Source: Patescibacteria group bacterium (GTDB lineage: Bacteria; Patescibacteriota; Minisyncoccia; Phycocordibacterales; UBA9973). From it: 64,000 nucleotides of DNA. Location: positions 13,301 to 77,300 of the forward strand of contig JAZJXT010000005.1 of NCBI GenBank assembly GCA_040390725.1, given 5' to 3'. Made by a program: the position numbers and the translations under genes. Positions 1-47,829 of the stretch are shown in pieces. Position 1 is the stretch's first letter. Each line of letters starts with the position of its first letter. A model generated the notes under the pieces. It was not told where the DNA came from and did not search any database. It saw nothing but the letters and a program-made list of their open reading frames with translations.

Positions 1-111
1 ATGGTCTCGACTGAGGTCTACATTATTTTCATTTTTGTCATTATTATTCATATAAATTTAATAATATCACATAATCATTGCATTTCAAATATAATATGCT
101 ATATTGGATAT

Positions 112-342
112 ATGGTAGTACGAATGAGACATACAAAATCGCATACAAAGAACAGGCGCTCACATCATGCGTTGGTTAAAACCAGTTTCGCAAAGTGCGA
201 GAATTGCTCTGCTTTGAAAAAGCGACATACAGTTTGCAAATCTTGCGGTACTTATCGCGGGATGAAAGTTGTGGATTTGGTCAAAAAAGCTGAAAAGAAA
301 GCTACGAAAGCAAAGGCTAAAAAGGTAGAAGCAGGCAAATAA
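112..342 (+). CDS. rpmF: 50S ribosomal protein L32
   Basis: C-terminal part of ORF 1..342 reads MVVRMRHTKSHTKNRRSHHALVKTSFAKCENCSALKKRHTVCKSCGTYRG, a typical L32 zinc-ribbon. The upstream ORF extension is AT-rich hydrophobic noise. TGcTATATT extended -10 (97-105) sits 6 nt before ATG 112. Confidence 0.8.
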   Translation: MVVRMRHTKSHTKNRRSHHALVKTSFAKCENCSALKKRHTVCKSCGTYRGMKVVDLVKKAEKKATKAKAKKVEAGK

Positions 343-4772: not shown

Positions 4773-4801
4773 TTGACATTTGGGTTAGCATATGATATAC
4801 T
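4773..4801 (+). promoter_or_regulatory. canonical sigma70 promoter TTGACA-17-TATACT
   Basis: ttgaca (4773-4778), 17-nt spacer, tatact (4796-4801). Drives a ~150-nt leader with a nested hairpin (4861-4904: tcccgaaatta...taatttcggga, inner cacaac/gttgtg) before ORF 4955. Confidence 0.5.
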
Positions 4802-5948: not shown

Positions 5949-7841
5949 TTACTTTGCAAACTTAATTTTCTCTTCTTTTCCTAAAATAGGTTTTTGGGGT
6001 TGGAAGACAGAATTTAATTTTATTATATTTTTCTTTACGGACATTGTGCCAGCTTTGTAAAGTTTTATTTCTAGCAACATTCCTTGCATCGTGTTTTCCG
6101 AGAATTTTTGGTCAAAGATAAAGTTGCCTAATGAGTAGGCTATATAACTATTTTTATAAACTTCAAAATCTTCCACGACATGCGGATGCGCGCCGATGAC
6201 GAGTTTGGCACCGTCGTCTACGGCTTTATGCGCTAGGTATTCTTGGCGAGTATTATGTTTTGTTTGATATTCCTCACCGAAATGAAATGACACCACTAAA
6301 CTATCCACTTGTTTCGAAGCATTTTGAATTATTTTATCAAAATTCGGATTAGTGGTGAGTAGTAGTCCAGATTCTGTATCAGTAGGAGTCAACCATTCTG
6401 GGCCTTTATCAGAGAATGCCAGATAGCCTATTTTCATACCATTTTTTTCAATTATTTTAGGAATTTCTGCGTTATTTTCATTTGCTCCGCCTCCCGAATA
6501 AAGAATTTCGTTTTCTGTTAAGTGCGAAAGTGTGTCTTCGAAAGCTTCACGACCCCAGTCGCCGATATGATTGTTTGAAATAGAAAGTACATCTATGCCA
6601 GCACCCTTGAGTGCGGGTATAGTTTCCGGATCCATTCTGAAAGAATATAAATTGTGTTTATCTTCTCCTTGGTCTGACGCTGGGCCTTCTAAATTTGCAA
6701 AGACGATATCATTTTTATTAAGTTCACCCATGTTTTGGAAAAGAGCGGAATAGTCGCCGTTGAAATTCTTGCGAACGGAACTTTTTACTCCGCGGTCGAG
6801 CATGATGTCGCCCAAGAATGCTAAATTCACATAGTCAGGTTCTGCAAATTCAGGCATGCCTTCTTTGGTTTTTACCCAATTACTTTTTGCGTCTATTTCA
6901 CCACCGTAATAAATATTTTTCTTCACAAATTTTAAAATACTTTCCACGTCTTTTTTGCGGTCTGGTGTACGGAGGAGGACAATAGCTACATTTCTTTTCC
7001 CGGACTCAGAAAGAGGCAGGGAAAAATTTGAAATCACCGTTTGCTTAGCTTCGTCGGTGTATCCGCTCTTACCGCCCAGGTATCCATCATCACTTAGGAA
7101 TTGATTGGTGCTGTACCAGAAATGTTTTTTATTGCTGTAACTTTTATTTTGAGTTATTTTTAAAACATTAGGCGCGTTATTTTTTAAATATCCGGCGAGA
7201 GAAAATAGGTCGCGTGCGGTGGATTGATTGTTCGGCGAGAGTCCGCTCGGGTCTTCAAAGGACGTCGAAGGCATTGATAATCTTTGCGCTTCTTGATTCA
7301 TTTTTTGCAGGAAAGTTTCTCTATTAAAGTGTTCGGCTATTATTTCAGCGGCATCATTTGAAGATTCCAGTAGAAGAGGGTAGAGGATATCGCTTATCTT
7401 TATTTTTTCATTTAAATGAAAAGCGCCGTTTTGTCCGTATGTGGCAAGGGCTTTTTTGGAAACAACAGCCACATCATTGTCATCAGGCAGTTCTGTGGCG
7501 GTGAGAGCCGTCATAAGTTTTGAAACAGATGCGATAGGGTATTTTTGTTCTTCTTTTTTCTTTAAAATTATTTCACCGGTGTCCAAGTCACCCACTATGT
7601 ATGCATCAGCAGAAATCTTCGGCGCTATTTTTGGATCTTTTAGAAAATAAAAACTTGTCTGCTCAGGAGTTTTTGTTTCAGATATTGGTGCCGGTTGTGT
7701 TTTCGGGACTTCATTTTGGGTATTTCCTTCTTTTGATATTTTATAATATCCGATGGCTTGCGTTATGAAAAAAGCGGAGGCTAGTCCTACGGTTAAGGAT
7801 ATAATTACAAATAGAAATTTTTTTGCTGCTCGTTTAACCAT
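5949..7841 (-). CDS. membrane-anchored fusion of a serine-type D-Ala-D-Ala carboxypeptidase domain and a CapA/PgsA-like metallophosphatase domain
   Basis: N-terminal TM helix; PBP5-type motifs SVSKLMT (SxxK), ESSND (SxN), KSGYT (KTG). C-terminal half has CapA motifs (LAFLGDIMLDR, FANLEGP, SISNNHIGDWG, VIGAHPHVV). Confidence 0.75.
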   Translation of the reverse strand: MVKRAAKKFLFVIISLTVGLASAFFITQAIGYYKISKEGNTQNEVPKTQPAPISETKTPEQTSFYFLKDPKIAPKISADAYIVGDLDTGEIILKKKEEQKYPIASVSKLMTALTATELPDDNDVAVVSKKALATYGQNGAFHLNEKIKISDILYPLLLESSNDAAEIIAEHFNRETFLQKMNQEAQRLSMPSTSFEDPSGLSPNNQSTARDLFSLAGYLKNNAPNVLKITQNKSYSNKKHFWYSTNQFLSDDGYLGGKSGYTDEAKQTVISNFSLPLSESGKRNVAIVLLRTPDRKKDVESILKFVKKNIYYGGEIDAKSNWVKTKEGMPEFAEPDYVNLAFLGDIMLDRGVKSSVRKNFNGDYSALFQNMGELNKNDIVFANLEGPASDQGEDKHNLYSFRMDPETIPALKGAGIDVLSISNNHIGDWGREAFEDTLSHLTENEILYSGGGANENNAEIPKIIEKNGMKIGYLAFSDKGPEWLTPTDTESGLLLTTNPNFDKIIQNASKQVDSLVVSFHFGEEYQTKHNTRQEYLAHKAVDDGAKLVIGAHPHVVEDFEVYKNSYIAYSLGNFIFDQKFSENTMQGMLLEIKLYKAGTMSVKKNIIKLNSVFQPQKPILGKEEKIKFAK

Positions 7842-7852
7842 TTTTGAAATGA

Positions 7853-9811
7853 CTATATTAATACATAATCTATTGTTTTCTTTTCCAGGTCGGCGCTCTT
7901 TACTTTTATTTTGACCTTGCCTCCGAGTTTATATATTTTTTTCTTTTTTTCTCCGATGAGTTCCATTTTTTTCTCATTGAAAACATAAAAATCATCCGAG
8001 AGGTCTCGCACGCGGACGAGCCCTTCGCATTTTGTTTCCAATTCTTCCACATATACGCCCCATTCTGTTATGCCACTGATTACACCTTCGAAAGTTTTGC
8101 CGATGCGTGAAGACATATATTCCACCTGTTTGTATTTGATGGATGCGCGTTCGGCATCTGATGCGCGTTTTTCTTGGTCAGAAGATTTACGGGAAAGTTT
8201 TTCATATTCTTCAAATTTATTCGGACTTATTTTTTTACCGGACAAATAATCCGCGAGTAAGCGATGCACCATGACATCCGGATAACGCCTGATAGGGGAG
8301 GTGAAGTGTGTGTAGTATTCGAATGCGAGTCCATAGTGTCCGATATTTTTTGTAGAGTAAATCGCTTTTGCCATAGAGCGTATCATGGCTCTGCTCACGG
8401 CATCCTTTTCGGCTTTACCTGTGAGATTTTTTAAAATGTTATTCATTTCATATGAAGGAATAATTCCATTTTTCAATGATACTTTTTGCCCTAAACTTCG
8501 CAGGAAAAAAGCCAAGTCCTCCATTTTTTCTTTCGATGGCTCATCATGTATTCTATACACAAATACGCCTTCTTTTTTTGTAGCTTTTGCTAGTTTTTCC
8601 GCGACTTTTCTGTTTGCTAAAAGCATAAATTCTTCGATCAATTTATTTGAATCTCCGCGTTCTTTTTTGATAACTTTTATCGGTACGCCTTTTTCATCGA
8701 GGACGAATTTTACTTCTTCTTGTTCGAGAGACATTGCGCCCTTGGCGAATCTTTCTTTTGTTAAAAGTTTCGCTAGGTTATTTAAAATTAAAAGTTCTTT
8801 ATGCAGAGGCGCCGTGGATTTTTTTATTGATTCTTCTGCGTCTTCATAGCTGAATCTTTTTTTAGAATGTATCACAGTGCGTCCAAACCACTCATTTTTT
8901 ACTTGAGCGTTTTTATCTAGTGTGAATACAGCGCTCATAGTGAGGCGGTCTTTGTTTGGCACTAAGGAACATAAATCATTTGAAAGAATTTCCGGAAGCA
9001 TCGGTATCGTGCGGTCTACGAGGTAAACAGAAGTTCCACGTTCACGTGCTTCTTCATCGAGCTCACTGCCTATTTTTACATAATGCGAGACATCGGCTAT
9101 GTGTACGCCGACTTCAACATCTCCACCAGCTAATTCTAAAAAAGAAATAGCATCATCGAAATCTTTTGCATCGCTCGGGTCAATAGTGAAAGTTAAAATT
9201 TTTCGAAAATCACGTCTGCCGACAAAATCTTTTTCTGAAATTCCTTGTTGTTTTATTTTTTCCGCTTCAGTATTTACTTTATTTGGTAGTTCCGCTGCGA
9301 AACCTTTTTCCAAAGCTATCGCATGCATTTCCACATTATTATCGCCAGGACGTCCTAAAATTTTTACGACTTTTCCTTCGGGTGCTTTGCGTGGATCTTG
9401 CCAAGAAGTTATTTCAACAAAAACTTTTTGTCCTATTTTTGCTCCATTTAGATTTTTATCATGAATTAAAATATCCGTGTACATTTTTGTGTCGTCCGGT
9501 TTCAAGAAAAACATCGAATTTTCTTTTTCTAAAACTCCCGCGAAGCCAATCTTTGCGCGAGAGATTATTTTTACAACTTCGGCTGATTGTCTGCCTTTAC
9601 CCTTTGGATGCAAAATTATCTGCACAGTGTCGCCATGCAGGGCAGTCTTTAGATGCTTATAGTCTATTTCCGGATCTTCACCATTTTTGGTCTTTGTGCC
9701 GTCAATTTTGACATACCCTGTGCCTTTTGAGGTAATAGATATAATGCCTTCCAGTGTATTATGCTTATGTTTATTTTCCTTTTTCATATTCTTAATATAG
9801 CATATTTTCAT
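7853..9811 (-). CDS. rnr: ribonuclease R
   Basis: Cold-shock/OB N-terminus, RNB catalytic domain (TIDPSDAKDFDDAISF), C-terminal S1 domain (GKTFEGVISGITEWGVYVEL). On the minus strand, TGcTATATT extended -10 lies 6 nt before ATG 9811. Confidence 0.9.
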   Translation of the reverse strand: MKICYIKNMKKENKHKHNTLEGIISITSKGTGYVKIDGTKTKNGEDPEIDYKHLKTALHGDTVQIILHPKGKGRQSAEVVKIISRAKIGFAGVLEKENSMFFLKPDDTKMYTDILIHDKNLNGAKIGQKVFVEITSWQDPRKAPEGKVVKILGRPGDNNVEMHAIALEKGFAAELPNKVNTEAEKIKQQGISEKDFVGRRDFRKILTFTIDPSDAKDFDDAISFLELAGGDVEVGVHIADVSHYVKIGSELDEEARERGTSVYLVDRTIPMLPEILSNDLCSLVPNKDRLTMSAVFTLDKNAQVKNEWFGRTVIHSKKRFSYEDAEESIKKSTAPLHKELLILNNLAKLLTKERFAKGAMSLEQEEVKFVLDEKGVPIKVIKKERGDSNKLIEEFMLLANRKVAEKLAKATKKEGVFVYRIHDEPSKEKMEDLAFFLRSLGQKVSLKNGIIPSYEMNNILKNLTGKAEKDAVSRAMIRSMAKAIYSTKNIGHYGLAFEYYTHFTSPIRRYPDVMVHRLLADYLSGKKISPNKFEEYEKLSRKSSDQEKRASDAERASIKYKQVEYMSSRIGKTFEGVISGITEWGVYVEELETKCEGLVRVRDLSDDFYVFNEKKMELIGEKKKKIYKLGGKVKIKVKSADLEKKTIDYVLI

Positions 9812-9852
9812 TATTTTGTTGCATTTTATAAATAATATGCTAAACTCATTCT

Positions 9853-10161
9853 ATGTTAAAAATAAGGTTACAGAGAATAGGCAGAAAGAACGATCCGGCT
9901 TTTCGGGCGGTTTTGACTGATTCCAAGAACAGTACAAAGAGCGGAAGATTTTTGGAGATAGTCGGTACCTACAATCCAAAGGCAGGGGAGACTAATTTTA
10001 AAGCTGAAAGAATACAATACTGGATGTCAAAAGGCGCAAAGCTTTCTGACACAATGCATAATTTCCTAGTTCACCAAAAAGTTATCGAAGGCAAGAAAGT
10101 AAATGTTTTGCCAAAAAGAAAACCTACTCTAAAAAGAAAAGAATTAAAGGCTAAGAAATAG
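9853..10161 (+). CDS. rpsP: 30S ribosomal protein S16
   Basis: MLKIRLQRIGRKNDPAFRAVLTDSKNSTKSGRFLEIVGTYNP matches the S16 N-terminus. Confidence 0.9.
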   Translation: MLKIRLQRIGRKNDPAFRAVLTDSKNSTKSGRFLEIVGTYNPKAGETNFKAERIQYWMSKGAKLSDTMHNFLVHQKVIEGKKVNVLPKRKPTLKRKELKAKK

Positions 10162-10584: not shown

Positions 10585-10621
10585 AAATTAGTTGCTAGTG
10601 CCTAGGTACTAGTTTCTGGCG

Positions 10622-10650
10622 AAAAACTCGAGATGTCTCGGGTTTTTTGT
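10622..10650 (+). terminator. rho-independent terminator
   Basis: aaaaactcgagatgtctcgggtttttt. Confidence 0.6.
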
Positions 10651-10696
10651 TTGCTTTTTTTACTAGAACCTATAAACTAGAACCTATAACCTAATT

Positions 10697-11356: not shown

Positions 11357-12138
11357 ACTTTTATTCCGTATTTTTTTATAACTTCTAAAATTTCATCGTG
11401 CACGAGTCCGTTTGAGGCGAGCTGTCCGGCGACTTTTTGGTCATAACGAGTATTTTGTCCAAAAAGGTCGGTGGCTTTTCCGCCGGCTTCTTCGACTATT
11501 ATTTGAATAGCTGCCGTATCGTGCGGGTCTTTGCCTCCGAATAGAATTGCCGAGAATTCTCCCGCGCCTACCAATGCGCCCATGTAATCTATCGAAAGTC
11601 CGGTCACTAAACGCACACCGCGTTCACGCAATGCTTCACCGACGGGGAAAAGATTGATAACCCCTGCAGACCATTTGCCTATGCCGATGACTGTTTTTTG
11701 AACGCTAGGGGAAGCAGAAACTTTTATTGTTTCGCCGTTTAGTGTCGCGCCTTTGCCTTTTTCTGCGAAATAAATTCTATTTAAAAATGGGTCACAAATA
11801 ACGCCGAGTATCGGAATGCCATCTTGCACTAATGCTAAAGCAAAAGCCGATGTAGGTATGCCGTGTGCGAAATTATGCGTGCCGTCCACAGGGTCGCAAA
11901 TCCAAGCGTATTCACTTTTTTGTAAGATATCTTCCGCCTCTTCGGAAAGGATGCTGTGGGTAGGGAAATGCTCGGTGATTTTTTTTACCACGATTTCGTT
12001 GATAGCTGTATCAGTCTCTGTTACCGGCGAATGGTCTTCTTTCCATTCCTTTTTCATACCCATCATAAAATTCTTGCGCATAATTTCACCCGCTTCTTTT
12101 GCCAATTCCAAAGCCACTTTTTTATATTCTGAATCCAT
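11353..12138 (-). CDS. suhB: inositol monophosphatase family protein (SuhB-like)
   Basis: IMPase motifs ETDTAINE and WICDPVDGTHNFAHGIP. Confidence 0.85.
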   Translation of the reverse strand: MDSEYKKVALELAKEAGEIMRKNFMMGMKKEWKEDHSPVTETDTAINEIVVKKITEHFPTHSILSEEAEDILQKSEYAWICDPVDGTHNFAHGIPTSAFALALVQDGIPILGVICDPFLNRIYFAEKGKGATLNGETIKVSASPSVQKTVIGIGKWSAGVINLFPVGEALRERGVRLVTGLSIDYMGALVGAGEFSAILFGGKDPHDTAAIQIIVEEAGGKATDLFGQNTRYDQKVAGQLASNGLVHDEILEVIKKYGIKV

Positions 12139-12199
12139 CTTTTTATTATAGCATTTATTTCAGTTTTTTTAAATTTTTGTTATACTTAACAGATTAAAA

Positions 12200-13682: not shown

Positions 13683-13750
13683 TAAAAAATGTATTTTAAA
13701 AACACCTCGGAATATTCCGGGGTTATTTTTTTATTTCCTTTTCAAGATTT

Positions 13751-13771: not shown

Positions 13772-13812
13772 AGAAAATTTGCTCACTTTCTTAAACGTGA
13801 TATACTTTCATT

Positions 13813-14001
13813 ATGAATACTTTAGTAATGAAAAAAGTCAATAATCAAATCAAAGCTCTTGTTTCAAGCGCAGTTTTTGATGTTTTCAATGATCCCGATT
13901 TTGGTCTTGCATTGAGCACTAAAGCAAAAAATAGATTATCTAATTCTTCTAAAAATAATAAAACTCTCTCACTTAGTCAGCTTAAGAAAAAATACTTATA
14001 A
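13813..14001 (+). CDS. putative antitoxin (62 aa) of a RelE/ParE-type TA pair
   Basis: Small ORF; its stop is 1 nt from the toxin start, the typical TA operon layout. No confident fold assignment. Confidence 0.55.
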   Translation: MNTLVMKKVNNQIKALVSSAVFDVFNDPDFGLALSTKAKNRLSNSSKNNKTLSLSQLKKKYL

Positions 14002-14272: not shown

Positions 14273-14328
14273 AAATTTCCTTACGTTGTTAATTTGTTTA
14301 AATTTCTATTTTTTAGTATATTTACTAT

Positions 14329-15036
14329 ATGACATTCCCAAATCCAAATTTAAACCCTGCTTCTTCGGGAGACAATAAAAATTTTGAGAATATTAAGCTC
14401 ACGCCGGAGTATTTTGCCGAACTTTTATATTGGTCGTTTCATCTTTCACAGAACAATGTTCCCTTACAACATAATTATTTTAAGTATCTTCATATTGTTC
14501 ATCCTGACTGGAGAGCTTCAGATGAATTAGCGAATGTTGGTAAAGAAAAATTAAAAGAGAAATTGGGGGATTTTCCTCATTCTCATAAAAATCACACTAA
14601 AGATTCAGGAGATGCTTTTAAAAGAGCAGTTGATTTAGAAATTCATAGACAGCCCTTACATTTAAGAGATAATTTAAATGGAGAAATTCTAAAGTTAGAA
14701 TTTTCTAAAAAACCGCGAGGTAATTCACTTGAAAGTTTATTAATAGAGTCTGCCGAAATGATTATTGACCAAGATTCCCTTTATATAATAAAAGGAAGGC
14801 CGAACAGAGAAGGCAAGCCGTATGAGAGTCAGTTTTGTAATTATGTTTTACTCGGTAAAAAAACGGCTATACCTGAATACGATGATATGTTTTTGAAAAT
14901 GAAAGATCCTTTTATATTAAAAATGTTGGTTGCAGAAAAGACTGCTTTGGTTCGCGATGTAATAATTGCTCACAATAAAGATCATCCAGATAAGCGTGTA
15001 AAGATAGAAGGTTTAAAGTTAGATATAGAAATTTGA
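14329..15036 (+). CDS. hypothetical protein (235 aa)
   Basis: Intact ORF with no recognisable family. Confidence 0.5.
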   Translation: MTFPNPNLNPASSGDNKNFENIKLTPEYFAELLYWSFHLSQNNVPLQHNYFKYLHIVHPDWRASDELANVGKEKLKEKLGDFPHSHKNHTKDSGDAFKRAVDLEIHRQPLHLRDNLNGEILKLEFSKKPRGNSLESLLIESAEMIIDQDSLYIIKGRPNREGKPYESQFCNYVLLGKKTAIPEYDDMFLKMKDPFILKMLVAEKTALVRDVIIAHNKDHPDKRVKIEGLKLDIEI

Positions 15037-21400: not shown

Positions 21401-22036
21401 GTAAAAGATAAAGATGGAAAAGAAAAAATAATTAAAGTTCTTTCTGATTCGAAACTTGATGGAAAAGACAATGAAATAGAATACATCGCTCCATATCGCA
21501 GAATGCCATTGGTAAAAGCAGGGGATACTGTAAAGAAAGGTGAACTTCTTACTGACGGTTCCGCAGATATTGCAGAAATATTTAAATTCGGAAGCAAAGA
21601 ACAAGCTGAAGAATATATTATCCGAGAAATAAATAAAGTTTACGAACTTCAGAGTGCTTCTATTTCCAGAAAGCACACGGAAATAATCATTCGTCAGATG
21701 TTCTCACGAAGAAAAATAAAAGACGCGGGTGAGACTAATTTCTCAGCGGGAGACATCGTTGAAAATACAGCTTTAATCGAAGAAAATATTAGAGTTAGTA
21801 AAATAGAGGGCAAGGAAGCAAAAGCGGAAATTATCGCGCTCGGTATTACTGAAGTTTCCCTACGTACAAAGAGCTGGTTGTCTGCGGCTTCATTCCAAAA
21901 CACTAACCGCGTCCTTATTGAAAATGCTATCAAGGGCGGAGTTGATTCGCTTCGAGGACTAAAAGAAAATGTAATTATCGGAAGATTGATTCCAGTAGGA
22001 ACAGGCTTTAATAAAAATAAAGCAGTAGTAGAATAA
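18434..22036 (+). CDS. rpoC: DNA-directed RNA polymerase subunit beta'
   Basis: 1200 aa; zinc finger CYCGKY..C..CGVEV; catalytic NADFDGDQMAV. Confidence 0.97.
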   Translation: MKTLNTTDFDQITLKLASPEQIKEWSYGEITKPETINYRTGRSERGGLFDEKIFGPEKDYECYCGKYRRIRYKDIICEKCGVEVTRSIVRRERMGHIELATPVAHIWFLRGVPSRMSILLNISVSDLEKVIYFAGYIVTKVHEEEKEDILQNLDKEYKAKVKNAADEDTREKLKNLLTTTKKEIGEIYEGKVLNEISFHHYSLKYGTCFEANIGAEAIYSIFKNLDLNKLKMHTEAMLEKASTAEKEKMQKRLSLIRAMMYSKVRPEWMFLTVIPVIPPVLRPMVALDGGRHATSDLNDLYRRVINRNNRLRKLKEINAPDVILRNEKRIIQEAVDALIDNSIAKQNDTVAMSQSQKRALKSLSDNLKSKQGLFRQNLLGKRVDYSGRSVIVVGPQLKLNQCGLPKHMALELFKPFVISKILLAELAFNIRGANKLIEERTPEVWAMLEEVILGKYVLLNRAPTLHRLGIQAFNPILIEGNAIQVHPLVCQAFNADFDGDQMAVYVPLSEEAQWEAKELMAANKNLLKPQNGEPIANPRMDMVLGAYWMTKDVDGEMGEGKYFSSPNAAVTAYEYGVVSLRAKIKVMATDTVKYKKFNQQLFDTSVGRLLFNSILPNDFIYINDEITQKRVSSLVDELIMQYGIDQTPRILDKIKEFGFKYSTISGTTWGLDNVKVPVEKPKIIAEGKKLEEEVISQWQDGLLSDEEKYQKIIEIWTHAKKELEKVLPQTLDKNGSTYDLFTSGARGNMTSLSQMTGMKGLIQNNQGRTVEFPIIPSYQEGLSPIEYFVTTHGARKGASDTALNTAKAGYLTRRLVDVAQDVVITEEDCGTKEGKIVMKENISGIEIAFSKNLRGRVLAGDLKDKDGKTAYHKGFLITKEEAQVIEKAGYTEAFVRSPLTCKTVHGLCQMCYGLDLGRNHLVNLGEAVGIIAAQAIGEPGTQLTLRTFHAGGVAGVDITTGLPRIEEIFERRIPKNPAVVSETDGEVIEVKDKDGKEKIIKVLSDSKLDGKDNEIEYIAPYRRMPLVKAGDTVKKGELLTDGSADIAEIFKFGSKEQAEEYIIREINKVYELQSASISRKHTEIIIRQMFSRRKIKDAGETNFSAGDIVENTALIEENIRVSKIEGKEAKAEIIALGITEVSLRTKSWLSAASFQNTNRVLIENAIKGGVDSLRGLKENVIIGRLIPVGTGFNKNKAVVE

Positions 22037-22041
22037 AAAAT

Positions 22042-23778
22042 ATGATGAACTCTCCTGTTCAAAAAATAAAGGAGAGACTTTCAATCGAAGACATAGTCTC
22101 TTCTTACATAAAATTGGAGAAGTCGGGCGCAAATTTTAAAGCCCGATGTCCTTTTCACAATGAAAAGACGGCTTCATTTTATGTTTCGCCTGATCGGGGG
22201 AGTTACTATTGTTTTGGCTGTTCTGCCAAGGGAGATATTTTTACCTTCATTGAAGAATTCGAAGGGCTTGATTTTAAGGGCGCGCTGAAGCTTCTCGCAG
22301 AGCGTGCCGGCGTGCCTTTGGAGTCATACAACAAAGAAGAAGAAAGTGAGAAAGAAAAATTGTATCGCGTGATGGAAGAGTCCACAAAGTATTTTTCAAA
22401 AAATCTTTTAGAAAATAAAGATAATAAAAATATTTTGGAGTACTTGAAAAACAGGGGATTGAAAGATGAAAGTATAAAAGATTTCAGAATTGGTTTTGCG
22501 AAAAATGATTGGCGTGAGCTTTATAATTATTTGAAAAATAAAAATTTTTCTGATAAAGATATTGAGCTTGCTGGTCTTGCAAAACATCCTGATGATAAAA
22601 CAAAAGCAATGTATGATAGATTTCGTGGAAGAATTATGTTTCCGATTTCTGATTCCAGCGGGAGGGTGATAGCTTTTTCCGGAAGAATTTTTGAGTATGA
22701 TGGTAAGTCAGCAAAATATTTAAACAGTCCTGACACACCGATATTCAGCAAGTCTTATGTTCTTTACGGGCTCGACAAAGCTAAAGATTCTATTCGCAAG
22801 AATAATTTTTCCATTTTAGTTGAAGGACAGATGGATTTGGTTCTTTCGCATCAAGCAGGATTTCGAAATACCGTAGCGTCTTCGGGGACAGCTCTTTCGG
22901 ATTCGGAAGTTTCCAAAGAAAATGCAGTTTCAAATTTGGGATTGGTTCGCAGACTTTCGGACAATATTGTACTGGCATTTGATGCCGACAAAGCAGGGCT
23001 TTCGGCCGCAGGTAGGGCCGGTAAAATAGCATTATCGCTCGGTATGGATGTGAAGTCCGCTTCGATGCCTGAAGGCGTAGATCCGGCAGATTTGATAGTA
23101 AAAGAAGGTCCGGAAGCATGGAGGGTAGCCATTAGAAATTCAAAACATATTATAGAGTTTTTACTGGATAAAGTATTAAAAAGTTCCGGAGAAGATATGC
23201 GTAAAGCGGGTAGAGAAATAAAAGATAAAATTTTGCCTTATGTGGCTTCATTGGAAAGTTCAATAGAGCAAATGCATTTTATAAAAAAAATAAGTGATAG
23301 TTCTCAAATTCCCGAGCAAGCACTGAGAGATGATTTGAAAAAAGTTGAACAAGAGTTAAAATTTGATAAAAAAGTAATAGAAGAAATGAAAGAATCCGAG
23401 AGTAAGATTTTCAGAAAAGATTACATAGAACGCAGACTTTTAGGAATAGCATTTTGGCAAAAGTCATTGACGGATCCTGTGGTAGATTATGAAAATATTT
23501 TTAAAAAGTTGGAAAAAAGTTTGGTAAAATATGAAAATACAAAAGAAGATTTAGTTTATGAAGCAGAAGTTTTTTATACAAATAATCAGAATTTATTGAA
23601 AGATACCGAAGAAATGCTAATTGGTTTTGAAGAAGAAAACTTAAACGAAGAATTGGCGAAAAAAATGAGAGAATTAGGTCAGGTTAAAGATAAAGAAAAA
23701 GAAATACAGATTTTAAATGAAATAAATGAAATAAATAAGAAAAAAGAAAGTATTAAAAACAGTCGCATTAAAAAATAA
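22042..23778 (+). CDS. dnaG: DNA primase
   Basis: CHC2 zinc finger ([25 protein letters not shown]); TOPRIM ([18 protein letters not shown]). Confidence 0.9.
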
Positions 23779-23788
23779 AAATAAATTT

Positions 23789-25039
23789 ATGAAAAAAACA
23801 AAAGTAAAAACAAAAATAAAGAAAATTATAAAGAAAGTAAAAAAATCTCAACCAAAGAAAGTAGCTAAAAAGAAAGTTATAACAAAAATAAAGAAAGTTA
23901 CAAAGAAAGTAGTTAAGCCAAAAAAGGTAGTTGTCAAAAAGGAAGTTGCGAAGAAAATGACAGTAGCGGAGAAAAAGGCTGATGATTTAAAGAAGCTTTC
24001 CAATGCTTTGATAGAAAAAGGGCGCAAGAGAGGGTTTATTACTTATGATGAGATTTTAAAAACTTTCCCGGATATTGAAAATAATATTTTATTTTTAGAT
24101 GAGCTATATGAGCAGTTTTCTGTAGCGGGTATTGATGTGCTTGAAGGTGGGAATTTGCTCAATTTGGACGCAGACCTTACTGATGCGAATTTGAATAAAT
24201 CAACCATGCATGATTCTATTCAAATGTATCTAAAAGAGATCGGTCAGTATTCCTTGATCCATGCCAGTGATGAAAAAGATTTAGCGAAAAGAATCGAGCA
24301 GGGTGATGAAGAGGCGAAGAACTTGCTCGCTCGTGCGAACTTGCGTTTAGTTGTTTCTATTGCTAAAAAATATGTGGGACGAAGTGCTGACCTGACATTG
24401 CTTGATTTGATTCAAGAAGGGAATCTTGGCTTGTTTAAAGCTGTGGAAAAATTTGACTGGACAAAAGGTTATAAATTCTCAACTTATGCTACTTGGTGGA
24501 TTCGTCAGTCCATCACTCGTGCACTCGCCGATCAAAGCCGAACTATTCGTATTCCGGTGCACATGGTAGAAACTATTTCCAAATACAAACAAACTCACCG
24601 CCGACTTTCACAAGACTTGGGCCGTGAGCCTTTGGCGGAAGAGATAGCTACTGAGATGGGTTTGCCTGTAGAAAAAATTCACGTAATAGAAAATATTTCT
24701 CAAGAAACTATTTCTTTGGAACAACCAGTAGGAGATGACGACGATAAATCAACTTTGGAAAACTTTATTCCCGATGACAAAATTTTACGCCCTGATCAAG
24801 AATCTTCTCGCAGAATTCTTTCCGATCAAATTCGCGAAGTTCTCGATGAGTTGAATCCAAAAGAGAAAAAAATTCTTGAAATGCGTTATGGCTTGATGGA
24901 TGGAATTCAACACACACTCGAGCGAGTGGGGGAAGAGTTCGGTGTTACTCGTGAACGTATTCGTCAAATTGAAGCAAAAGTCCACGACAAACTCCGCCAG
25001 CATGATAAAATTTCGCGCCTAAAACACTACTTTGACTAA
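23789..25039 (+). CDS. rpoD: RNA polymerase sigma factor RpoD (sigma70) with lysine-rich N-terminal tail
   Basis: Region 2 ([40 protein letters not shown]) and region 4 ([23 protein letters not shown]). Confidence 0.95.
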
Positions 25040-25792: not shown

Positions 25793-25942
25793 TTAATTTT
25801 TTACGTTAATTTTTAATATGTTAATAACTATTATTGTATCATAATTTATTAGTATGATACAATATAAGAAGGAAGTTGCCTGCCTAAGTCGTTCAGGTGG
25901 GAATATTATTAACAATTATTAATTAATTTTTTATAAAATATT

Positions 25943-26290: not shown

Positions 26291-26321
26291 CTTTTAGCCC
26301 TATTTTTGCTATAATGTGGGG

Positions 26322-27560
26322 ATGCATCAAGTTTTTGAGGTAGCTATATATGTGTTCTCTTTTATTGCTGTTTTTGTGCAGATTTTTTTCTTGATCACGT
26401 TTTTTGAGGGCAGGAAAAGCATTCGTCGTATTTTTGCTGAAATTTTAGAATATCCTTCTATTACTGTTATGGTTCCTTGTTATAACGAAGAGTCTACGAT
26501 TGCAGGTACAGTAGAGTCTATATTGGCGCTTGATTATCCTAAAGATAAAATTTTTATAAAGTTAATAGATGACGGTTCTAGTGACGGTACTTTTTCTGCA
26601 ATGCATAAATTTTCTTCTGTTCCAAATTTGGAAATTATAAAAAAAGAAAATGGCGGAAAACATACTGCTCTTAATCTCGGTATAGAAAATTCTTCGAGTG
26701 ATTTCGTGGCTTGTCTCGATGCTGATTCTTCTGTGCATCCGCAAGCTTTAAAAAGAATGATTCCATATTTTTCTGATCCAAAAGTAATGGCCGTTTCACC
26801 GTCGATCATCGTGCGTGAGCCGGATAATATTATCCGCAAGGCTCAAAAAGCTGAATATGATTTATCTGTTTATGTTAAAAAAATGCTTGGACTCATCGGA
26901 GGAATTCATGTTACCCCTGGACCATTTTCAGTATATAGAAGGGAAGTATTTGAGAAAATAGGAATGTATCGAAAGGCTCACAATACAGAGGATATGGAGA
27001 TAGCTTATCGAATGCAAACAAATGGATTAAAAATAGAACAGTGTCACGATGCATTTGCTTATACTTCAGCGCCTAGTTCCGTCTGGAAGCTTTACAAACA
27101 GCGCCTGCGTTGGATTTACGGTTTTATAAACAATACTATAGATTATCGCGATGTTCTTTTTCGTAAAAAATACGGTCACTTTGCTCTGTTTACGTTGCCG
27201 GCGGGAGTCCTCGATATTTTCGCGGTACTGGTTCTTTTTGGTAATTTTTTCTATGTAATAGGTAATTTTATTTATCAGAAAGCTGAGGCTGCCAGTGTCG
27301 TCGGTGTGAATAATTTAGTCTCCGTGCCTTCTCATTTTAGTTTATTTTACATAGGGTCCAAGGCACTGCTTTTCATAATGTGTATTATTTATGCATTGGT
27401 TATTTTTTCAATCTTAATGGGAAGAAAAATGTCTGAAGGCAAGGCTCGCTTTTCTCCATCCATTATTTATTATATTTTTATATACAGTTTAATAGCGCCA
27501 TTTTGGCTTGTAAAAGCTGTAGTTAATACGGCTATATCTAAACAGCCAGCCTGGAAATAA
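26322..27560 (+). CDS. family-2 glycosyltransferase, processive membrane synthase type (DxD and QxxRW motifs)
   Basis: VMVPCYNEE, IDDGSSDGT, CLDADS, QRLRW, and multiple TM helices on both sides (NodC/PgaC/HasA-like). TGcTATAAT -10 (26307-26315) ends 6 nt before ATG 26322; the track GTG at 26316 is too close to the -10. Confidence 0.75.
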   Translation: MHQVFEVAIYVFSFIAVFVQIFFLITFFEGRKSIRRIFAEILEYPSITVMVPCYNEESTIAGTVESILALDYPKDKIFIKLIDDGSSDGTFSAMHKFSSVPNLEIIKKENGGKHTALNLGIENSSSDFVACLDADSSVHPQALKRMIPYFSDPKVMAVSPSIIVREPDNIIRKAQKAEYDLSVYVKKMLGLIGGIHVTPGPFSVYRREVFEKIGMYRKAHNTEDMEIAYRMQTNGLKIEQCHDAFAYTSAPSSVWKLYKQRLRWIYGFINNTIDYRDVLFRKKYGHFALFTLPAGVLDIFAVLVLFGNFFYVIGNFIYQKAEAASVVGVNNLVSVPSHFSLFYIGSKALLFIMCIIYALVIFSILMGRKMSEGKARFSPSIIYYIFIYSLIAPFWLVKAVVNTAISKQPAWK

Positions 27561-28733: not shown

Positions 28734-28887
28734 AGTTTAAAAAAATATTTTGTTTAATATCTTTTTTTATTTCCCAAAATCAAATTTGTGTGCTATTGTG
28801 TATTTACAACTTCATATATACCCCTAAGCGTAAAGCAAGGGGAATTTTAGGTTTTTAATGGAGGTGGTTTGTGTGTTGAGGCATTAA

Positions 28888-28980
28888 TTCTCCTCTTGAG
28901 GAGTACCCCGACAGCAGTCGGGGGGAGGTGGAGAATTTATCCACCCCGTCTCGCAAGCGAGCCACCCCTCAAGAGGGGAA
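28888..28980 (+). other. GC-rich four-helix structured element immediately upstream of uvrA (unknown RNA or repeat)
   Basis: Outer inverted repeat cctcttgagg (28891-28900) / cctcaagagg (28967-28976) encloses hairpins ccccgac-agca-gtcgggg, ggtgga-gaattta-tccacc and ctcg-caag-cgag. It is about 60% GC in a genome of roughly 33% GC. Confidence 0.4.
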
Positions 28981-28989
28981 TAAAATTTT

Positions 28990-32022: not shown

Positions 32023-32075
32023 AGTAGTTTCTTTTTTAATTGTGGAACATTTAGATATATGATACTATATAGCCT

Positions 32076-33347
32076 ATGCAAAGTCAAGCGTTAAAAAATT
32101 ATAAGTTGCCGGACAAACCGGGAGTTTATTTTTTTATGGGTTCAAAGCCACGAACAAAAACCTCACCCCCGACCCCTCTCCATTTTAAAGAAATGGAGAG
32201 GGGAGGAATGCCGAAGGCAGGAGGGGTGAGGGAAGAAATTCTCTATATCGGCAAAGCGACAAGTTTGAAAGACAGGGTAAAGAGTTACTTTGGTAAAGAT
32301 TTATTTAATACTCGTGGGCCGTTGATTGTGGATATGGTAACGAAAACCACAAGTTTAAAATGGCAGGAAACTGACTCAGTTTTGGAAGCGCTTATTTTGG
32401 AAGCGAATTTAATTAAAAAACATCAGCCATATTACAATACAAAAGAAAAAGATGATAAAAGTTTTAATTATGTTTGCATAACACGTGATAAAAAAATTAT
32501 GTTTGTGCGCGGAAAAGTACTAGATATAAAAAAATATAATTCTGTTTTCGGACCTTTTCCATCTGGTAGTCAACTTAAAGATGCTATGAAAATTGTGCGT
32601 CGAATTTTCCCATATATTGAAGAGAGAAGGGGTGCAAAAGGCAAAGAAGAATTTTATAAACAAATAAAGCTTTTCCCATTAGATTCAAAAGAAAATACAA
32701 ATAACATTAAAAACATAAAACTATTTTTTGAGGGCAAGAAACAAAAAGTAGTAAAGAACTTAGAAAAAGAAATGAAGATGCTTGCGCATGAGCATGAATT
32801 TGAACAGGCAAATGAAATAAAGAAACAGCTATTTGCATTAAAGCACATCAATGATGTTGCATTAATAAAAGGAGATTCTTTTGGAGGCTCAACCTCCAAA
32901 AATTTCAGAATTGAAGCTTATGATATAGCTCATATGTCAGGACAAAATATGGTGGGTGTGATGACGGTTTTGGAAGATGGCGAAGTAAATAAAAATGAAT
33001 ATAGAAAATTCAAGATAAAAAATTATGATAGTGCGAATGACACCGGAGCATTGTTGGAAGTTTTAGAAAGACGTTTTAATCATTCCGAGTGGCAATATCC
33101 GAAATTAATTGTGATAGACGGAGGCAAGGCACAGCTGAATGTAATTAAAAAATTCCAAGCTCGCGTCGGGTTCGCTATTCCGTCAGTGGCGGTAGTGAAA
33201 GATGAAAGGCATAAAGCTAAAGGCATTTTGGGTGACAAAGAAACTATAAAAAAGTTCGAAAAAAGCATTTTACTAGCAAATGCCGAAGCGCATAGGTTTG
33301 CTATCAAATATCACATAAAAACACGCAAAAATAGCTTTTTGGGGTAG
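32076..33347 (+). CDS. uvrC: excinuclease ABC subunit C, short form lacking the C-terminal (HhH)2 domain, with an in-frame palindromic-element insertion in the GIY-YIG domain
   Basis: GIY-YIG (PGVYFF...ILYIGKATSLKDRVKSYF), UVR motif (EFEQANEIKKQLFALKHI), endonuclease domain (RIEAYDIAHMSGQNMVGVM). Ends at 423 aa. Confidence 0.85.
   Translation: MQSQALKNYKLPDKPGVYFFMGSKPRTKTSPPTPLHFKEMERGGMPKAGGVREEILYIGKATSLKDRVKSYFGKDLFNTRGPLIVDMVTKTTSLKWQETDSVLEALILEANLIKKHQPYYNTKEKDDKSFNYVCITRDKKIMFVRGKVLDIKKYNSVFGPFPSGSQLKDAMKIVRRIFPYIEERRGAKGKEEFYKQIKLFPLDSKENTNNIKNIKLFFEGKKQKVVKNLEKEMKMLAHEHEFEQANEIKKQLFALKHINDVALIKGDSFGGSTSKNFRIEAYDIAHMSGQNMVGVMTVLEDGEVNKNEYRKFKIKNYDSANDTGALLEVLERRFNHSEWQYPKLIVIDGGKAQLNVIKKFQARVGFAIPSVAVVKDERHKAKGILGDKETIKKFEKSILLANAEAHRFAIKYHIKTRKNSFLG
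32161..32232 (+). repeat. 72-bp imperfect palindromic element (CCTCACCC...GGGTGAGG termini) inserted in frame inside uvrC
   Basis: cctcacccccgacccctctccattt | taaagaa | atggagaggggaggaatgccgaaggcaggaggggtgaggg. It encodes the extra peptide ~KPRTKTSPPTPLHFKEMERGGMPKAGGVRE between conserved GIY-YIG blocks and shares termini and the CTCTCC core with the element at 4329-4712. Confidence 0.7.
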
Positions 33348-33382
33348 GTGTGCATAAGTTATTTGCAGTATCTTTAGTTCAA

Positions 33383-33501
33383 ATGCTATAATATAAGGGT
33401 CGATTTATTAATGTTATTTAATTAAATAAATCATATGCTTGGAGCACACTAATTTCGATAAAACTAAAAAGACAGTTTGGAGCGATCTCGACTGTCTTTT
33501 T
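33383..33501 (+). ncRNA. putative small RNA or short transcription unit: extended -10 promoter plus intrinsic terminator with no long ORF
   Basis: aaatgctataatataagggt (33381-33400) is nearly identical to the scpA promoter region at 61181-61200. Terminator aaaaagacagt...actgtcttttt lies at 33466-33501. The ~85-nt interval has only 4-5-codon ORFs. Confidence 0.35.
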
Positions 33502-33521
33502 AGTTTCTTATCGCTTTATTT

Positions 33522-34718
33522 ATGACTAAAAAAGATAAAAAAATATGCAGTGCTTGTGGGGCTGCTCCGGTAAATCATAATGTTCTCTTTGCATCACAGC
33601 TTATTAATGAAACAATAGGTAAAACTTTTGACATTATATTTTCTTTTTTTTCAGCTGGGAAATATCCACCACTCGCGAATTTTGTGGAAAAAATTTTACT
33701 TACATCTTCTCATTTTTTAGGAATTGTAAAATATGACGATGATATAGAGAAATCTTTAAATGGACGTTCGAAACTTATTTGGGAAGAAGCCAGACGCCGA
33801 GGCATAGATATGAAGCAAATTATTGTTTTTGGAAAACCCGTTGATCAATACAAAGCGATAATCAACGGACAAACTATTTTTTTTCAAAGCATACCTGTTC
33901 CTCTTTGGATATCTCAAGAGGGGTATGATTGGATTGATGATAAATTTATTTTTGCAAAAAAATTTAGAGATGCAGGCATTCCAACTCCGGCAACAAAAAA
34001 AGTTACTTCACTTAAAAATGCTATTTCTGCATTTGAAAGTTTACATAAGCCGATAATTATAAAACCAAAATCAGGCTCGCGAGCCAGACATACTACTACA
34101 AATATAAATACTAAAGAAGAAATGAAAAAAGCTTTTCTCCTCGCCAATGAGATAACTCCTTCAATGGTCGCTCAGGAGCATCTTTTTGGTTCCGTTTATC
34201 GGGCTACTGTTGTAGATAATGTTTTGGTTGGATTTTTTAGAGGTGATCTGCCGGAAGTTATTGGTGACGGTAAAAAAAGTATTCAAGAATTAATTTTAGA
34301 AAAAAATAAAAATCGCCACGAAAGAGTATCTCTAATTTTAATAAACAATGAGCTTTTGTCTTTTATTCAAAGACAAGGATATGCTCTTGAGAGTATCATA
34401 CCCATGGGCGTGAAAGTAAATATTTCAGCAAAGACCGGAAGGCTTTATGGTAGCTATACTAAGGAAATGCTTCCGGAGGTTCATCCAAAAATGTATAAAA
34501 TTTTCGAGAAGGCCGGCCGGCTCGCTTCTATTCCTGTCGCGGGTTTTGATTTGATAATAGAAGATCCGACAAAAGACCCTGATACTCAACACTGGGGAAT
34601 TATTGAATGTAATTCTTTGCCTTTTATTGATTTGCATTATTTTGCATTGGAAGGCGAGCCGATAAATGTCGCCAAGCATGTTTGGGATTTGTGGGATAAA
34701 AAGTTGTATAATAAGTAG
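33522..34718 (+). CDS. ATP-grasp enzyme resembling the N-terminal and ATP-grasp half of cyanophycin synthetase (CphA-like); no Mur-ligase-like C-terminal half
   Basis: KPIIIKPKSGSRARHTTTNINTKEEM (CphA has KPLDGNHGRGVT); VIGDGKKSIQELILEKNKN (CphA has VIGDGxHTIxELIExxN); N-terminal CSAC pair. Confidence 0.55.
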   Translation: MTKKDKKICSACGAAPVNHNVLFASQLINETIGKTFDIIFSFFSAGKYPPLANFVEKILLTSSHFLGIVKYDDDIEKSLNGRSKLIWEEARRRGIDMKQIIVFGKPVDQYKAIINGQTIFFQSIPVPLWISQEGYDWIDDKFIFAKKFRDAGIPTPATKKVTSLKNAISAFESLHKPIIIKPKSGSRARHTTTNINTKEEMKKAFLLANEITPSMVAQEHLFGSVYRATVVDNVLVGFFRGDLPEVIGDGKKSIQELILEKNKNRHERVSLILINNELLSFIQRQGYALESIIPMGVKVNISAKTGRLYGSYTKEMLPEVHPKMYKIFEKAGRLASIPVAGFDLIIEDPTKDPDTQHWGIIECNSLPFIDLHYFALEGEPINVAKHVWDLWDKKLYNK

Positions 34719-35612: not shown

Positions 35613-35662
35613 TATAATTAAATTTACAACTTAATAAATATATTTAAATTGTTTTTATCTGT

Positions 35663-35765
35663 AGCGGGTGATCGCACTCACATAGGCACATATGTTGGAG
35701 GTTAGCCATCACCCGCTTCAAATGAAAGCAATTAACCCCGCCATTATTTTGGCGGGGTTTTGTTT
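35663..35765 (+). other. 10-bp perfect-stem hairpin with 35-nt loop followed by an intrinsic terminator (ddl 3' structure or small RNA)
   Basis: agcgggtgat (35663-35672) ... atcacccgct (35708-35717); then ccccgcc-attatttt-ggcgggg plus T-run (35735-35765). Confidence 0.45.
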
Positions 35766-36083
35766 TATCCCGGTACTAAAATTTTAAAATATATTTTTAT
35801 GATTTACTAATTTTATTTTTTTAATTATTTATTTAGTAAATAAAAATTTTTTAGAAAAATTTAGTACGGGATCCTCAATTTTCTAATTTACTTCGTAAAA
35901 AGAAAATTGGGAGTTATCCACAGTTTTGCGAAAAAACTCTTGCGTTAAGTTTTATTATGCGGGATAATTAAGTTGTTCCTCGCAATAATTTTTTTAAAAT
36001 ATTTTTCTTAAATTAATTTTTAAAAAAATATTTTAGGTCGTCTTATTGCAAACTAAATTAAAAATTAATTTTAAAAAAATTTT

Positions 36084-36158: not shown

Positions 36159-36234
36159 TCTTCTCAAAAAATCCCTGACGCGAGTCAGGGATTTTTTGTT
36201 TCATATTTTTATAAAAAATGCTAATATATTACTT

Positions 36235-39871: not shown

Positions 39872-39906
39872 CTTTATTCTATTGTTTTTTATGTTAGTAT
39901 AAAAAT

Positions 39907-47792: not shown

Positions 47793-47829
47793 ACTGGCTA
47801 TTGTATCATGTTTTTGATAGAATAAATAA

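Follow-up and report, generated by a model that had tools for sequence, protein, structure and literature searches.

In bacteria assigned to group C by GeneMarkS-2, typically Actinobacteria and Deinococcus-Thermus, the Pribnow box lies 6-8 nucleotides (nt) from the start of the gene and 25-50% of the transcripts are predicted to be leaderless (PMC6028130). A comparable layout is found in the 64-kb stretch of bacterial DNA analysed here, which is called the window throughout: as in the group C species Mycobacterium tuberculosis and Deinococcus deserti (-10 element 6-8 nt upstream), an extended -10-like element stands just before many start codons, in this case at 37-46% of the genes, with no ribosome-binding site between the two. 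In mycobacteria, AUG and GUG both serve as 5'-terminal start codons, and putative leaderless starts at GTG occur here too. From the sequence features described below, we consider it highly probable that these elements are extended -10 promoters of the housekeeping sigma factor and that they yield leaderless messenger RNAs (mRNAs) beginning with AUG or GUG. The architecture itself is already known from group C. What appears new is the lineage, since a full-text literature search on leaderless or Shine-Dalgarno (SD) initiation in Patescibacteria, the Candidate Phyla Radiation (CPR), Saccharibacteria and Parcubacteria found no prior description.

The window differs from group C in several respects. 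The remaining genes of group C bacteria use SD sequences, whereas those considered here show no SD peak, either in the window or in close relatives, and the 16S rRNA of the relatives lacks an anti-SD. In addition, the promoters of this patescibacterial lineage are of a low-GC, TRTG extended -10 type, and many of them lie inside tight gene clusters. In sequence, they resemble the extended -10 promoters read by the sigma-70 factor SigA of Firmicutes (TGn or TRTGn, the '-16 region'), in which TG is placed one base before TAnnnT, a purine precedes the TG, and the -35 element is dispensable. The likeness extends to the sigma factor, whose region 3.0 (RIPVHMVET) is as in the two best-matching solved SigA proteins. 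However, the extended -10 promoters of Firmicutes normally stand before 5' untranslated regions (UTRs) with a strong SD, whereas those of the window abut the start codon.

Two further comparisons concern translation without SD pairing. The Bacteroidota keep the anti-SD of 16S rRNA, and their upstream motif is the same at first and internal genes and is not a promoter. The window shares with these bacteria (GeneMarkS-2 group B; PMC6028130) a near absence of SD use and an A-rich, G/C-poor sequence upstream of starts, but here the anti-SD of the relatives is replaced and the motif behaves as a promoter. In Parcubacteria, an anti-SD motif was detected in just 48% of genomes, SD helices are thought not to form where this motif is absent, and the reduction of CPR ribosomes has been likened to that of mitochondria, according to Tsurumaki et al. 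(2022; PMC9297842). Like the Parcubacteria without anti-SD, the 13 relatives for which a 16S rRNA gene is at hand have no CCUCC at the 3' end. The passages of that article on these subjects make no mention of leaderless mRNA, and the leaderless promoters proposed here would offer an answer. Most or many mRNAs of haloarchaea and mammalian mitochondria also have no 5' UTR, and the mitochondrial ribosome likewise has no anti-SD. However, the transcription machinery and the promoters differ (in archaea, leaderless genes have their promoter box 22-26 nt before the start; PMC6028130), and the resemblance is one of analogy, not homology.

The Window and Its Source

The window has a GC content of ~37% and carries ~56 genes, predominantly on the plus strand. 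By Pfam content, these include rpmF, nusB, rnc, smc, rnr, rpsP, trmD, rpoB, rpoC, dnaG, and rpoD, together with uvrA, uvrC, secA, murC/D/E-like ligases, dnaE, yqeY, obg, gatB, a class-I aldolase, the genes for L25, L31 and a release factor, and scpA/B. Rfam and tRNA scans of the window returned zero tRNA genes, zero Rfam matches, and zero rRNA. The SecA protein is 76-82% identical to proteins of metagenome-assembled genomes labelled Candidatus Nomurabacteria, Paceibacteria or Paceibacterota. The organism is therefore placed, on protein identity, in the Parcubacteria group of Patescibacteria (CPR), as an apparently ultrasmall, groundwater-type bacterium (Candidatus Nomurabacteria/Paceibacteria). 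An exact look-up of L31 recovered a 6.8-kb contig (L081, run SRR26324628) that is 100% identical to positions 53315-60135; the same kind of look-up with the GatB sequence returned no record.

A Recurrent -10 Motif before Start Codons

The layout is exemplified by the first gene, rpmF, at which positions 97-114 read TGCTATATT (97-105), ggatat (106-111), and ATG (112-114), with TTGCAT 16 nt before the -10 hexamer. Its recurrence was measured by a test that is independent of any gene model, in which matches to TGNTANNNT-N6-ATG (TGnTAnnnT-N6-ATG) were counted in the window and in 100 dinucleotide-preserving shuffles of it. The window holds 17 matches vs 2.67±1.52 in the shuffles, none of which reached 17, and 14 of the 17 matches open an open reading frame (ORF) of at least 60 amino acids (aa). 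When the spacing was varied from 0 to 20 nt, 6 nt alone stood out, with a weak signal at 7 nt.

A second count used starts chosen blind to the motif: non-overlapping ORFs of 100 aa or more were collected, and each was taken to begin at its first ATG. A TANNNT hexamer was present at 6-7 nt in 18 of these 49 genes, for a background of 0.034 per offset (binomial P=1.5e-9); at a control offset 60 nt inside the coding sequence, it was present in 1 of 49. Eleven of the 18 sites carry the TG extension; when the offsets between 31 and 100 nt are summed, the TG-extended motif occurs seven times in all. In a curated gene map, some starts of which were picked with the motif already known, the hexamer occurs at 6 or 7 nt in 26 of 56 genes and the TG extension at 18 of those 26. 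It is the spacing-anchored test alone that discriminates: a general promoter scan of the first 20 kb gave 64 sites for 54±8 expected, which is uninformative at ~37% GC.

These results bear on a sequence-only reading that had reported the layout at ten or more genes and had proposed that much of the proteome is made from leaderless mRNAs. The recurrence is confirmed, and more strongly than had been claimed; 'much of the proteome' amounts to about 37-46% of the genes in the window. Nine of the eleven sites that it had listed are exact: rpmF (112), rpsP (9853), the antitoxin (13813), the GT2 gene (26322), secA (36235, at 7 nt), the exonuclease (47792, minus strand, at 7 nt), yqeY (47830), the PaaX-like gene (50919, no TG), and scpA (GTG 61199). 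It had also described a longer block shared by several promoters. The block 'AAATGCTA..AT' is indeed common to three of them (12138, secA, scpA), but its enrichment is marginal, with six matches for 1.5 expected, a count reached by 2 of 100 shuffles. About 15 more sites were absent from that list, including those of inositol monophosphatase (12138, minus strand), uvrC (32076), murD (39907), dnaE (46620, minus strand), gatB (52763), the fructose-bisphosphate aldolase (54231), L25 (56992), the SLT-domain protein (57661), and L31 (59859). The sites are as follows, each with its motif, the spacing to the start codon, and the start codon.

97-114, plus strand: rpmF (L32), TGcTATATT, 6 nt, ATG 112; residue 6 falls on position 6 of the Pfam L32p profile.
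9785-9802, minus strand: rnr (RNase R), TGcTATATT, 6 nt, ATG 9787; motif and spacing recur at rnr orthologues of metagenome relatives, often with GTG.
9838-9855, plus strand: rpsP (S16), TGcTAAACT, 6 nt, ATG 9853; divergent from rnr, with 65 bp between the start codons.
12136-12153, minus strand: inositol monophosphatase, TGcTATAAT, 6 nt, ATG 12138; residue 3 falls on position 3 of the Pfam profile.
13798-13815, plus strand: antitoxin upstream of ParE, TGaTATACT, 6 nt, ATG 13813; a terminator lies upstream at 13704-13723.
14317-14331, plus strand: hypothetical 235-aa protein, TATATT without TG, 6 nt, ATG 14329.
22029-22044, plus strand: dnaG, TAGAAT without TG, 7 nt, ATG 22042; the hexamer lies in the 3' end of rpoC.
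26307-26324, plus strand: GT2 glycosyltransferase, TGcTATAAT, 6 nt, ATG 26322; a GC-rich hairpin lies directly upstream.
32060-32078, plus strand: uvrC-like gene, TGaTACTAT, 7 nt, ATG 32076.
34707-34721, plus strand: Ddl-like ligase, TATAAT, 6 nt, ATG 34719; the final codons of the preceding gene contain the hexamer.
36219-36237, plus strand: secA, TGcTAATAT, 7 nt, ATG 36235; an intrinsic terminator lies upstream (36165-36198), its stem ending 36 nt short of the ATG.
39892-39909, plus strand: murD, TGtTAGTAT, 6 nt, ATG 39907.
46618-46635, minus strand: dnaE, TGcTATTAT, 6 nt, ATG 46620; the PHP domain runs from residue 7.
47790-47808, minus strand: DnaQ-like exonuclease, TGaTACAAT, 7 nt, ATG 47792; 37 bp from the divergent yqeY start.
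47815-47832, plus strand: yqeY, TGaTAGAAT, 6 nt, ATG 47830.
48272-48286, plus strand: 205-aa membrane protein, TATTCT without TG, 6 nt, ATG 48284; a weak site.
48840-48854, plus strand: MYG1-family gene, TAACCT without TG, 6 nt, ATG 48852; a weak site.
50907-50921, plus strand: PaaX-like regulator, TAGAAT, 6 nt, ATG 50919; a TAGACA -35 element lies at 17 nt.
51571-51588, plus strand: BNR-repeat protein, TGgTATGTT, 6 nt, ATG 51586.
52748-52765, plus strand: gatB, TGtTATTCT, 6 nt, ATG 52763; 19-nt gap to the preceding gene.
54216-54233, plus strand: class-I fructose-bisphosphate aldolase, TGcTACAAT, 6 nt, ATG 54231; the -10 element overlaps the gatB stop codon.
56980-56994, plus strand: L25 (rplY), TATAAT, 6 nt, ATG 56992; position 1 of the Pfam L25p profile falls on residue 4.
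57646-57663, plus strand: SLT-domain transglycosylase, TGcTATACT, 6 nt, ATG 57661.
59844-59861, plus strand: rpmE (L31), TGaTAAGCT, 6 nt, ATG 59859; residues 1-63 fall on positions 1-63 of the Pfam L31 profile.
61184-61201, plus strand: scpA, TGcTAATAT, 6 nt, GTG 61199; a putative leaderless GTG start.
23789-25039, plus strand: rpoD; its product, the primary sigma factor, presumably reads these promoters.

The two remaining sites of the sequence-only reading need correction. At rnr, the -10 layout (TGCTATATT followed by 6 nt) belongs to another start codon than the one listed: the proposed start at 9811 has no -10 element at 6-7 nt and is rejected, and the orthologues indicate the next in-frame ATG, at 9787. 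The -10 element attributed to trmD did not stand, because 'TATAAC' lacks the conserved final T and is found inside tandem CTAGAACCTA repeats that follow a terminator; trmD is not accepted as a leaderless gene.

These repeats, with a period of ~14 nt, are found at 349-399 and 10603-10693, directly upstream of the nusB and trmD start codons, and both sets end in AACCTAATT just before the ATG. Eight matches with at most one mismatch are present vs 2.5 expected, and the repeats are absent from 80 secA-related loci. Possible identities are an operator, a small repeat element, and an unusual promoter.

Start Codons

The sequence-only reading had moved several starts, at 26322 (the GT2 gene), 36235 (secA), and 47792 (the exonuclease). 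Pfam profile coordinates agree with the proposed starts of L31, L32, inositol monophosphatase, SecA, and the exonuclease, and thus with the last two of the moved starts: position 2 of the SecA_DEAD profile falls on residue 5 counted from 36235, and the RNase_T domain of the exonuclease begins 8 residues after the start at 47792. In tblastn searches, the SecA alignment began at residue 1 for most relatives. For the aldolase (333 aa), L25, the SLT-domain protein, and L31, the starts agree with those of an independent gene call on the identical contig.

The start codons themselves are restricted. At 6 nt from the motif, only ATG or GTG is found, with 12 GTG vs no TTG and no CTG over four sequence/lineage sets; among the rnr loci (L082-L091), there are six GTG vs 13 ATG, and again no TTG. 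This restriction fits a purine as the initiating base at +1. The frequent GTG at 6 nt, in relatives and at 61199 of the window, points to an efficient leaderless initiation at 5'-GUG in this clade.

It might be argued that the pattern is an artefact, produced by chance TAnnnT hexamers in A/T-rich intergenic DNA or by mis-chosen starts with true starts downstream. At ~37% GC, TAnnnT is indeed common, some sites are weak, and some curated starts were chosen with the motif in mind. Against this, the observed count was never reached by the dinucleotide shuffles, the motif-blind set and its coding control (1/49) give the same answer at P=1.5e-9, the starts are supported by Pfam coordinates and by N-terminal coverage in tblastn, and the pattern is conserved across species. 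We regard an artefact as largely refuted and extremely unlikely.

Conservation in Related Genomes

Dozens of related Patescibacteria have kept the layout at the orthologous starts of secA and rnr/rpsP. About 20 of 27 close relatives (SecA at least 71% identical) share the secA arrangement of a terminator hairpin with a T-run, (T)RTGCTAATAT, 7 nt, and ATG; in distant lineages the extended -10 element is retained at secA, and the spacing drifts to 6, 8, 9, 13 or 26 nt. The rnr metagenome contigs form a second series, independent of the first: in most of these relatives, TG(C/T)TATA(T/C)T is followed by 6 nt before the start, which is often GTG, and in the loci examined for it (L083 and L087) the divergent rpsP has its own TGtTAAnCT-6 nt-ATG.

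More generally, in the 27 close secA loci pooled (438 kb), the hexamer is present at 6-7 nt in 102 of 328 motif-blind genes (P=6e-48). Sites at spacings of 5, 6, 7, 8, and 9 nt number 0, 51, 25, 7, and 6, respectively. The 6-7 nt peak becomes weaker and broader with phylogenetic distance; in the remotest rnr loci, taken as a negative control, no peak at 6-7 nt was found.

A separate observation was made upstream of secA, where a lysine-rich micro-ORF of 24 aa, MAAKKKAAKKTTKKAAKKTTKKRA (36084-36158, plus strand), lies between a long AT-rich gap and the terminator. In 23 of 24 close relatives, secA is closely preceded by a similar micro-ORF (15-37 aa, starting with MA(A)KKK and nearly always ending with KKRA); the product may be an unannotated small basic protein, ribosomal or nucleic-acid-binding.

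Promoter or Translation Signal

Position frequencies were compiled from sites preselected for TG, 11 in the window and 57 in relatives, and they give TTT-R-TG-n-TA-n-A-A-T (a purine at -4, TG, n, TAnAAT), that is, a TRTG extended -10 element with T-rich sequence upstream and almost no -35 signal. Full-consensus promoters with a canonical -35 were considered and rejected, as the best TTGACA matches reach only 2-5 of 6 positions and the -35 signal in the matrix is near zero.

The sigma factor of the window agrees with such promoters. Its RpoD is most similar to Firmicutes SigA, with regions 2.4, 3.0, and 4.2 near-identical, and region 3.0 identical, to those of the two best-matching solved SigA proteins. 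In Escherichia coli and Thermus, work on sigma factors has established that the His and Glu of the region 3.0 helix contact the TG.

The geometry also fits a promoter. Across bacteria, the modal distance from the -10 element to the transcription start site is 7 nt after the hexamer (PMC12641261), and at spacings of 6 and 7 nt the start codon begins at the 7th and the 8th base after the hexamer, respectively. The spacing distribution is one-sided, with no site at 5 nt, as the leaderless model would expect because the start codon must not be truncated. Several of the promoters directly follow intrinsic terminators; at secA, the ATG comes only 36 nt after the terminator stem. Divergent start codons lie 37 bp (exonuclease/yqeY) and 65 bp (rnr/rpsP) apart, each with its own -10 element, and there is therefore no room for leaders.

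The position of the motif within transcription units was compared in the relatives. It is present at 61 of 163 heads of units vs 18 of 113 tight same-strand internal junctions (odds ratio 3.2, P=8.5e-5), and with the TG extension at 52 of 163 vs 9 of 113 (odds ratio 5.4, P=1.5e-6). In the window, internal junctions are as rich in the motif as the rest, and many promoters would therefore be embedded in the 3' end of the preceding gene.

This equal frequency is one argument for another explanation, in which the motif is not a promoter but a translation signal, either a non-SD ribosome-binding sequence or an A/U-rich enhancer, following the logic of GeneMarkS-2 group B, and is perhaps read by bS1 or by an altered 16S tail. 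The 16S 3' tail of the lineage is, in fact, unusual and conserved. However, the motif is a full TRTGnTAnnnT extended -10 element, it is 3-5x enriched at heads of units in relatives, and at secA it is kept while its spacing drifts from 6 to 26 nt. The absence of 5-nt spacings and of TTG starts also speaks against a translation signal, as do the duplex energies of the 16S tail, which, compared with those of shuffled tails, do not fall ahead of the start. Group B is recognised by a motif that first genes and internal genes share alike; the motif's preference in relatives for heads of units, the drift at secA, and the lack of 16S-tail pairing are a different pattern. We hold a translation signal to be very unlikely; the element behaves as a promoter rather than as a ribosome-binding site. 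The earlier proposal that transcription begins at the start codon gains support, for its first base, from the -10 consensus, the sigma factor, the geometry, the conservation, and the excess at heads of units, with the transcription start itself being inferred.

Shine-Dalgarno Pairing and the 3' End of 16S rRNA

The sequence-only reading had noted that no SD was visible at these starts. The 6-7 nt spacers leave no room for an SD or other ribosome-binding site between the -10 element and the start codon. GGAG, GAGG or AGGA precedes 2 of 49 starts vs 4 of 49 positions in the coding-region control, hence no SD enrichment, and neither the window nor its near relatives show an SD peak at any position. 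A modest SD peak at 6-8 nt does appear, but only in the secA group at the greatest distance, and the test is therefore able to detect SD use. The observation is thus backed by the lack of enrichment and of a positional peak, and by the absence of an anti-SD in the 16S rRNA of relatives.

In 13 related loci, a 16S rRNA gene is found ~2-3 kb upstream of secA (L004, at 6413-7961, and L002, L007, L008, L009, L011, L012, L016, L018, L025, L029, L038, and L042); the window has no rRNA at the syntenic place. The Rfam bacterial small-subunit rRNA model aligns end to end with the L004 gene, and its 3' terminus, GAUcACCUCCUUu, aligns to GAAUAAUUCAAUU. The 16S 3' end of the relatives thus carries GAAUAAUUCAAUU in place of the canonical GAUCACCUCCUU. 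A GGA(A/T)TA(A/C)TTCAA(T/A)TTGAAA tail is present in 13 of 13 relatives, with variants that differ at 1-3 bases, and none contains CCUCC; this tail, GGAATAATTCAATTTGAAA, is conserved, and the spacer beyond it diverges. Because the tail of the relatives lacks CCUCC, the clade probably cannot use SD pairing. The 16S rRNA of this genome is expected to share the altered tail, ending in ...GGAAUAAUUCAAUU without CCUCC.

An alternative SD-like pairing by the non-canonical tail GGAAUAAUUCAAUUUGA was also considered. Duplex-energy profiles for 223 non-leaderless genes, compared with those of 20 shuffled tails, show no dip before the start, and this candidate is rejected. In genes without the promoter, the start is preceded by A/T-rich, G/C-depleted sequence, usually with T at -1. 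The same A/T-rich, G/C-poor upstream sequence and T at -1 are found in genes with the motif.

Proposed Mode of Initiation

In the mechanism that we favour, the RpoD holoenzyme would recognise the extended -10 element and initiate at the A or G with which the start codon opens. The transcript would begin with AUG or GUG, without 5' UTR or ribosome-binding site, and a ribosome carrying initiator tRNA would bind the 5'-terminal start codon directly. Leaderless mRNAs of Actinobacteria, Deinococcus, and archaea have been described as bound in this way. This route would serve ~37-46% of the genes, including many inside tight same-strand clusters, and the remaining genes would rely on SD-independent internal initiation, or on re-initiation, after A/T-rich sequence.

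Several points weigh against this reading. The transcription start is placed by promoter geometry alone, and the -35 elements are poor (TTGACA matches of 2-5 of 6). In the window taken alone, the motif is as frequent at tight internal junctions (8 of 19) as elsewhere, which would be in keeping with a translation signal; only in the larger set of relatives do heads of units show an excess. Eight of the 26 curated sites have no TG, and some hexamers (TAACCT, TATTCT) are weak and may be due to chance, for which ~3-4 sites are expected. About half of the genes have no start-proximal -10 element, and a few are clearly leadered. Lastly, loss of the anti-SD in this organism is deduced from relatives with 67-80% SecA identity, the window having no rRNA gene.

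A related possibility is that the promoters are real but their leaderless transcripts a minor product. Protein would then come mostly from longer polycistronic or leadered mRNAs, by SD-independent internal initiation on A/U-rich unstructured starts, as in Bacteroidota, and the start-proximal promoters would merely add expression. The A/T-rich, G/C-poor context with T at -1 that is common to motif and non-motif genes would suit this explanation, many of the promoters lie in tight same-strand clusters where read-through is likely, and about half of the genes need a route that is neither leaderless nor SD-based in any case. However, terminators directly before several promoters imply that read-through is not the main source there, and the secA arrangement is conserved. 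Moreover, the strict exclusion of 5-nt spacing and of TTG indicates selection on a 5'-terminal start codon, which would be needless if leaderless transcripts were unimportant. We therefore judge this explanation unlikely, though less remote than a translation signal.

A wider proposal can be made for the clade of Nomurabacteria/Paceibacteria relatives: that it lost SD:anti-SD pairing outright and largely replaced it by leaderless initiation, with an extended -10 element before every second to third gene or so, including inside operons and before GUG. It would then be a free-standing bacterial counterpart of the mitochondrial and haloarchaeal mode, and this would explain initiation in Parcubacteria without anti-SD. 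We see the case for this proposal as evenly balanced.

Other Promoter-Like and Structured Regions

Some further regions of the window contain promoter-like elements at a distance from genes. The DsbA-like and DUF378 genes are separated by a 150-bp gap that contains, at 25833-25863, two identical TATGATACAAT extended -10 elements, one on each strand and pointing outwards. The leaders implied by this pair are ~34 nt and at least 73 nt long, and therefore not all promoters here would be leaderless. Judging from its Pfam alignment, DUF378 may in fact begin at 25979.

Upstream of an ATP-grasp gene (ATG 33522), the region 33382-33521 (plus strand) contains a AATGCTATAAT extended -10 element ~130 nt before the gene. 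The putative leader includes a hairpin and T-run (…agacagtttggagcgatctcgactgtcttttt…) ~25 nt before the ATG, which looks like a candidate transcription attenuator or unknown riboswitch. The 256-nt gap before uvrA (28734-28989, plus strand; ATG 28990) is unusually G/C-rich at its end, with several possible hairpins (…ggggggaggtggagaatttatccaccccgtctcgcaagcgagccacccctcaagagggg…), and contains TGTGCTATTGT at 28789-28799; this stretch may be a structured regulatory leader.

The best full-consensus promoter of the first 20 kb (TTGACA, 17 nt, TATACT, with TG) is at 4773-4801 on the plus strand, ~150 nt upstream of the next credible gene (4955) and adjoining a DUF559 fragment. A 52-aa 'ORF' that starts at its -35 element is probably not a gene.

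A candidate small RNA lies at 35608-35768 (plus strand). At the Ddl-like gene's end stands an extended -10 element, TATGATATAAT (35608-35618); the ~135 nt that come next are strongly structured and contain no convincing ORF. The predicted transcript (35625-35768) has a minimum free energy of -57.2 kcal/mol (z=-7.7) and ends in a bidirectional terminator at 35734-35759; its Rfam matches are sub-threshold only and terminator-driven.

Significance

Together with ~160 related loci, the window provides a concrete and testable answer to the way in which translation may start in Parcubacteria without anti-SD: ~30-45% of genes would have promoters that start transcription at AUG or GUG, and the rest would be initiated after A/U-rich sequence. 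If the reading is true, gene callers that expect SD sequences misplace starts in these genomes, as seen here for secA, rnr, and the exonuclease, and the -10 spacing rule could be used to set such starts right and to locate promoters for genetic work in Patescibacteria. A large uncultured group of phylum level would then join the leaderless bacteria, and the reduction of its ribosome would be linked to its mode of initiation.

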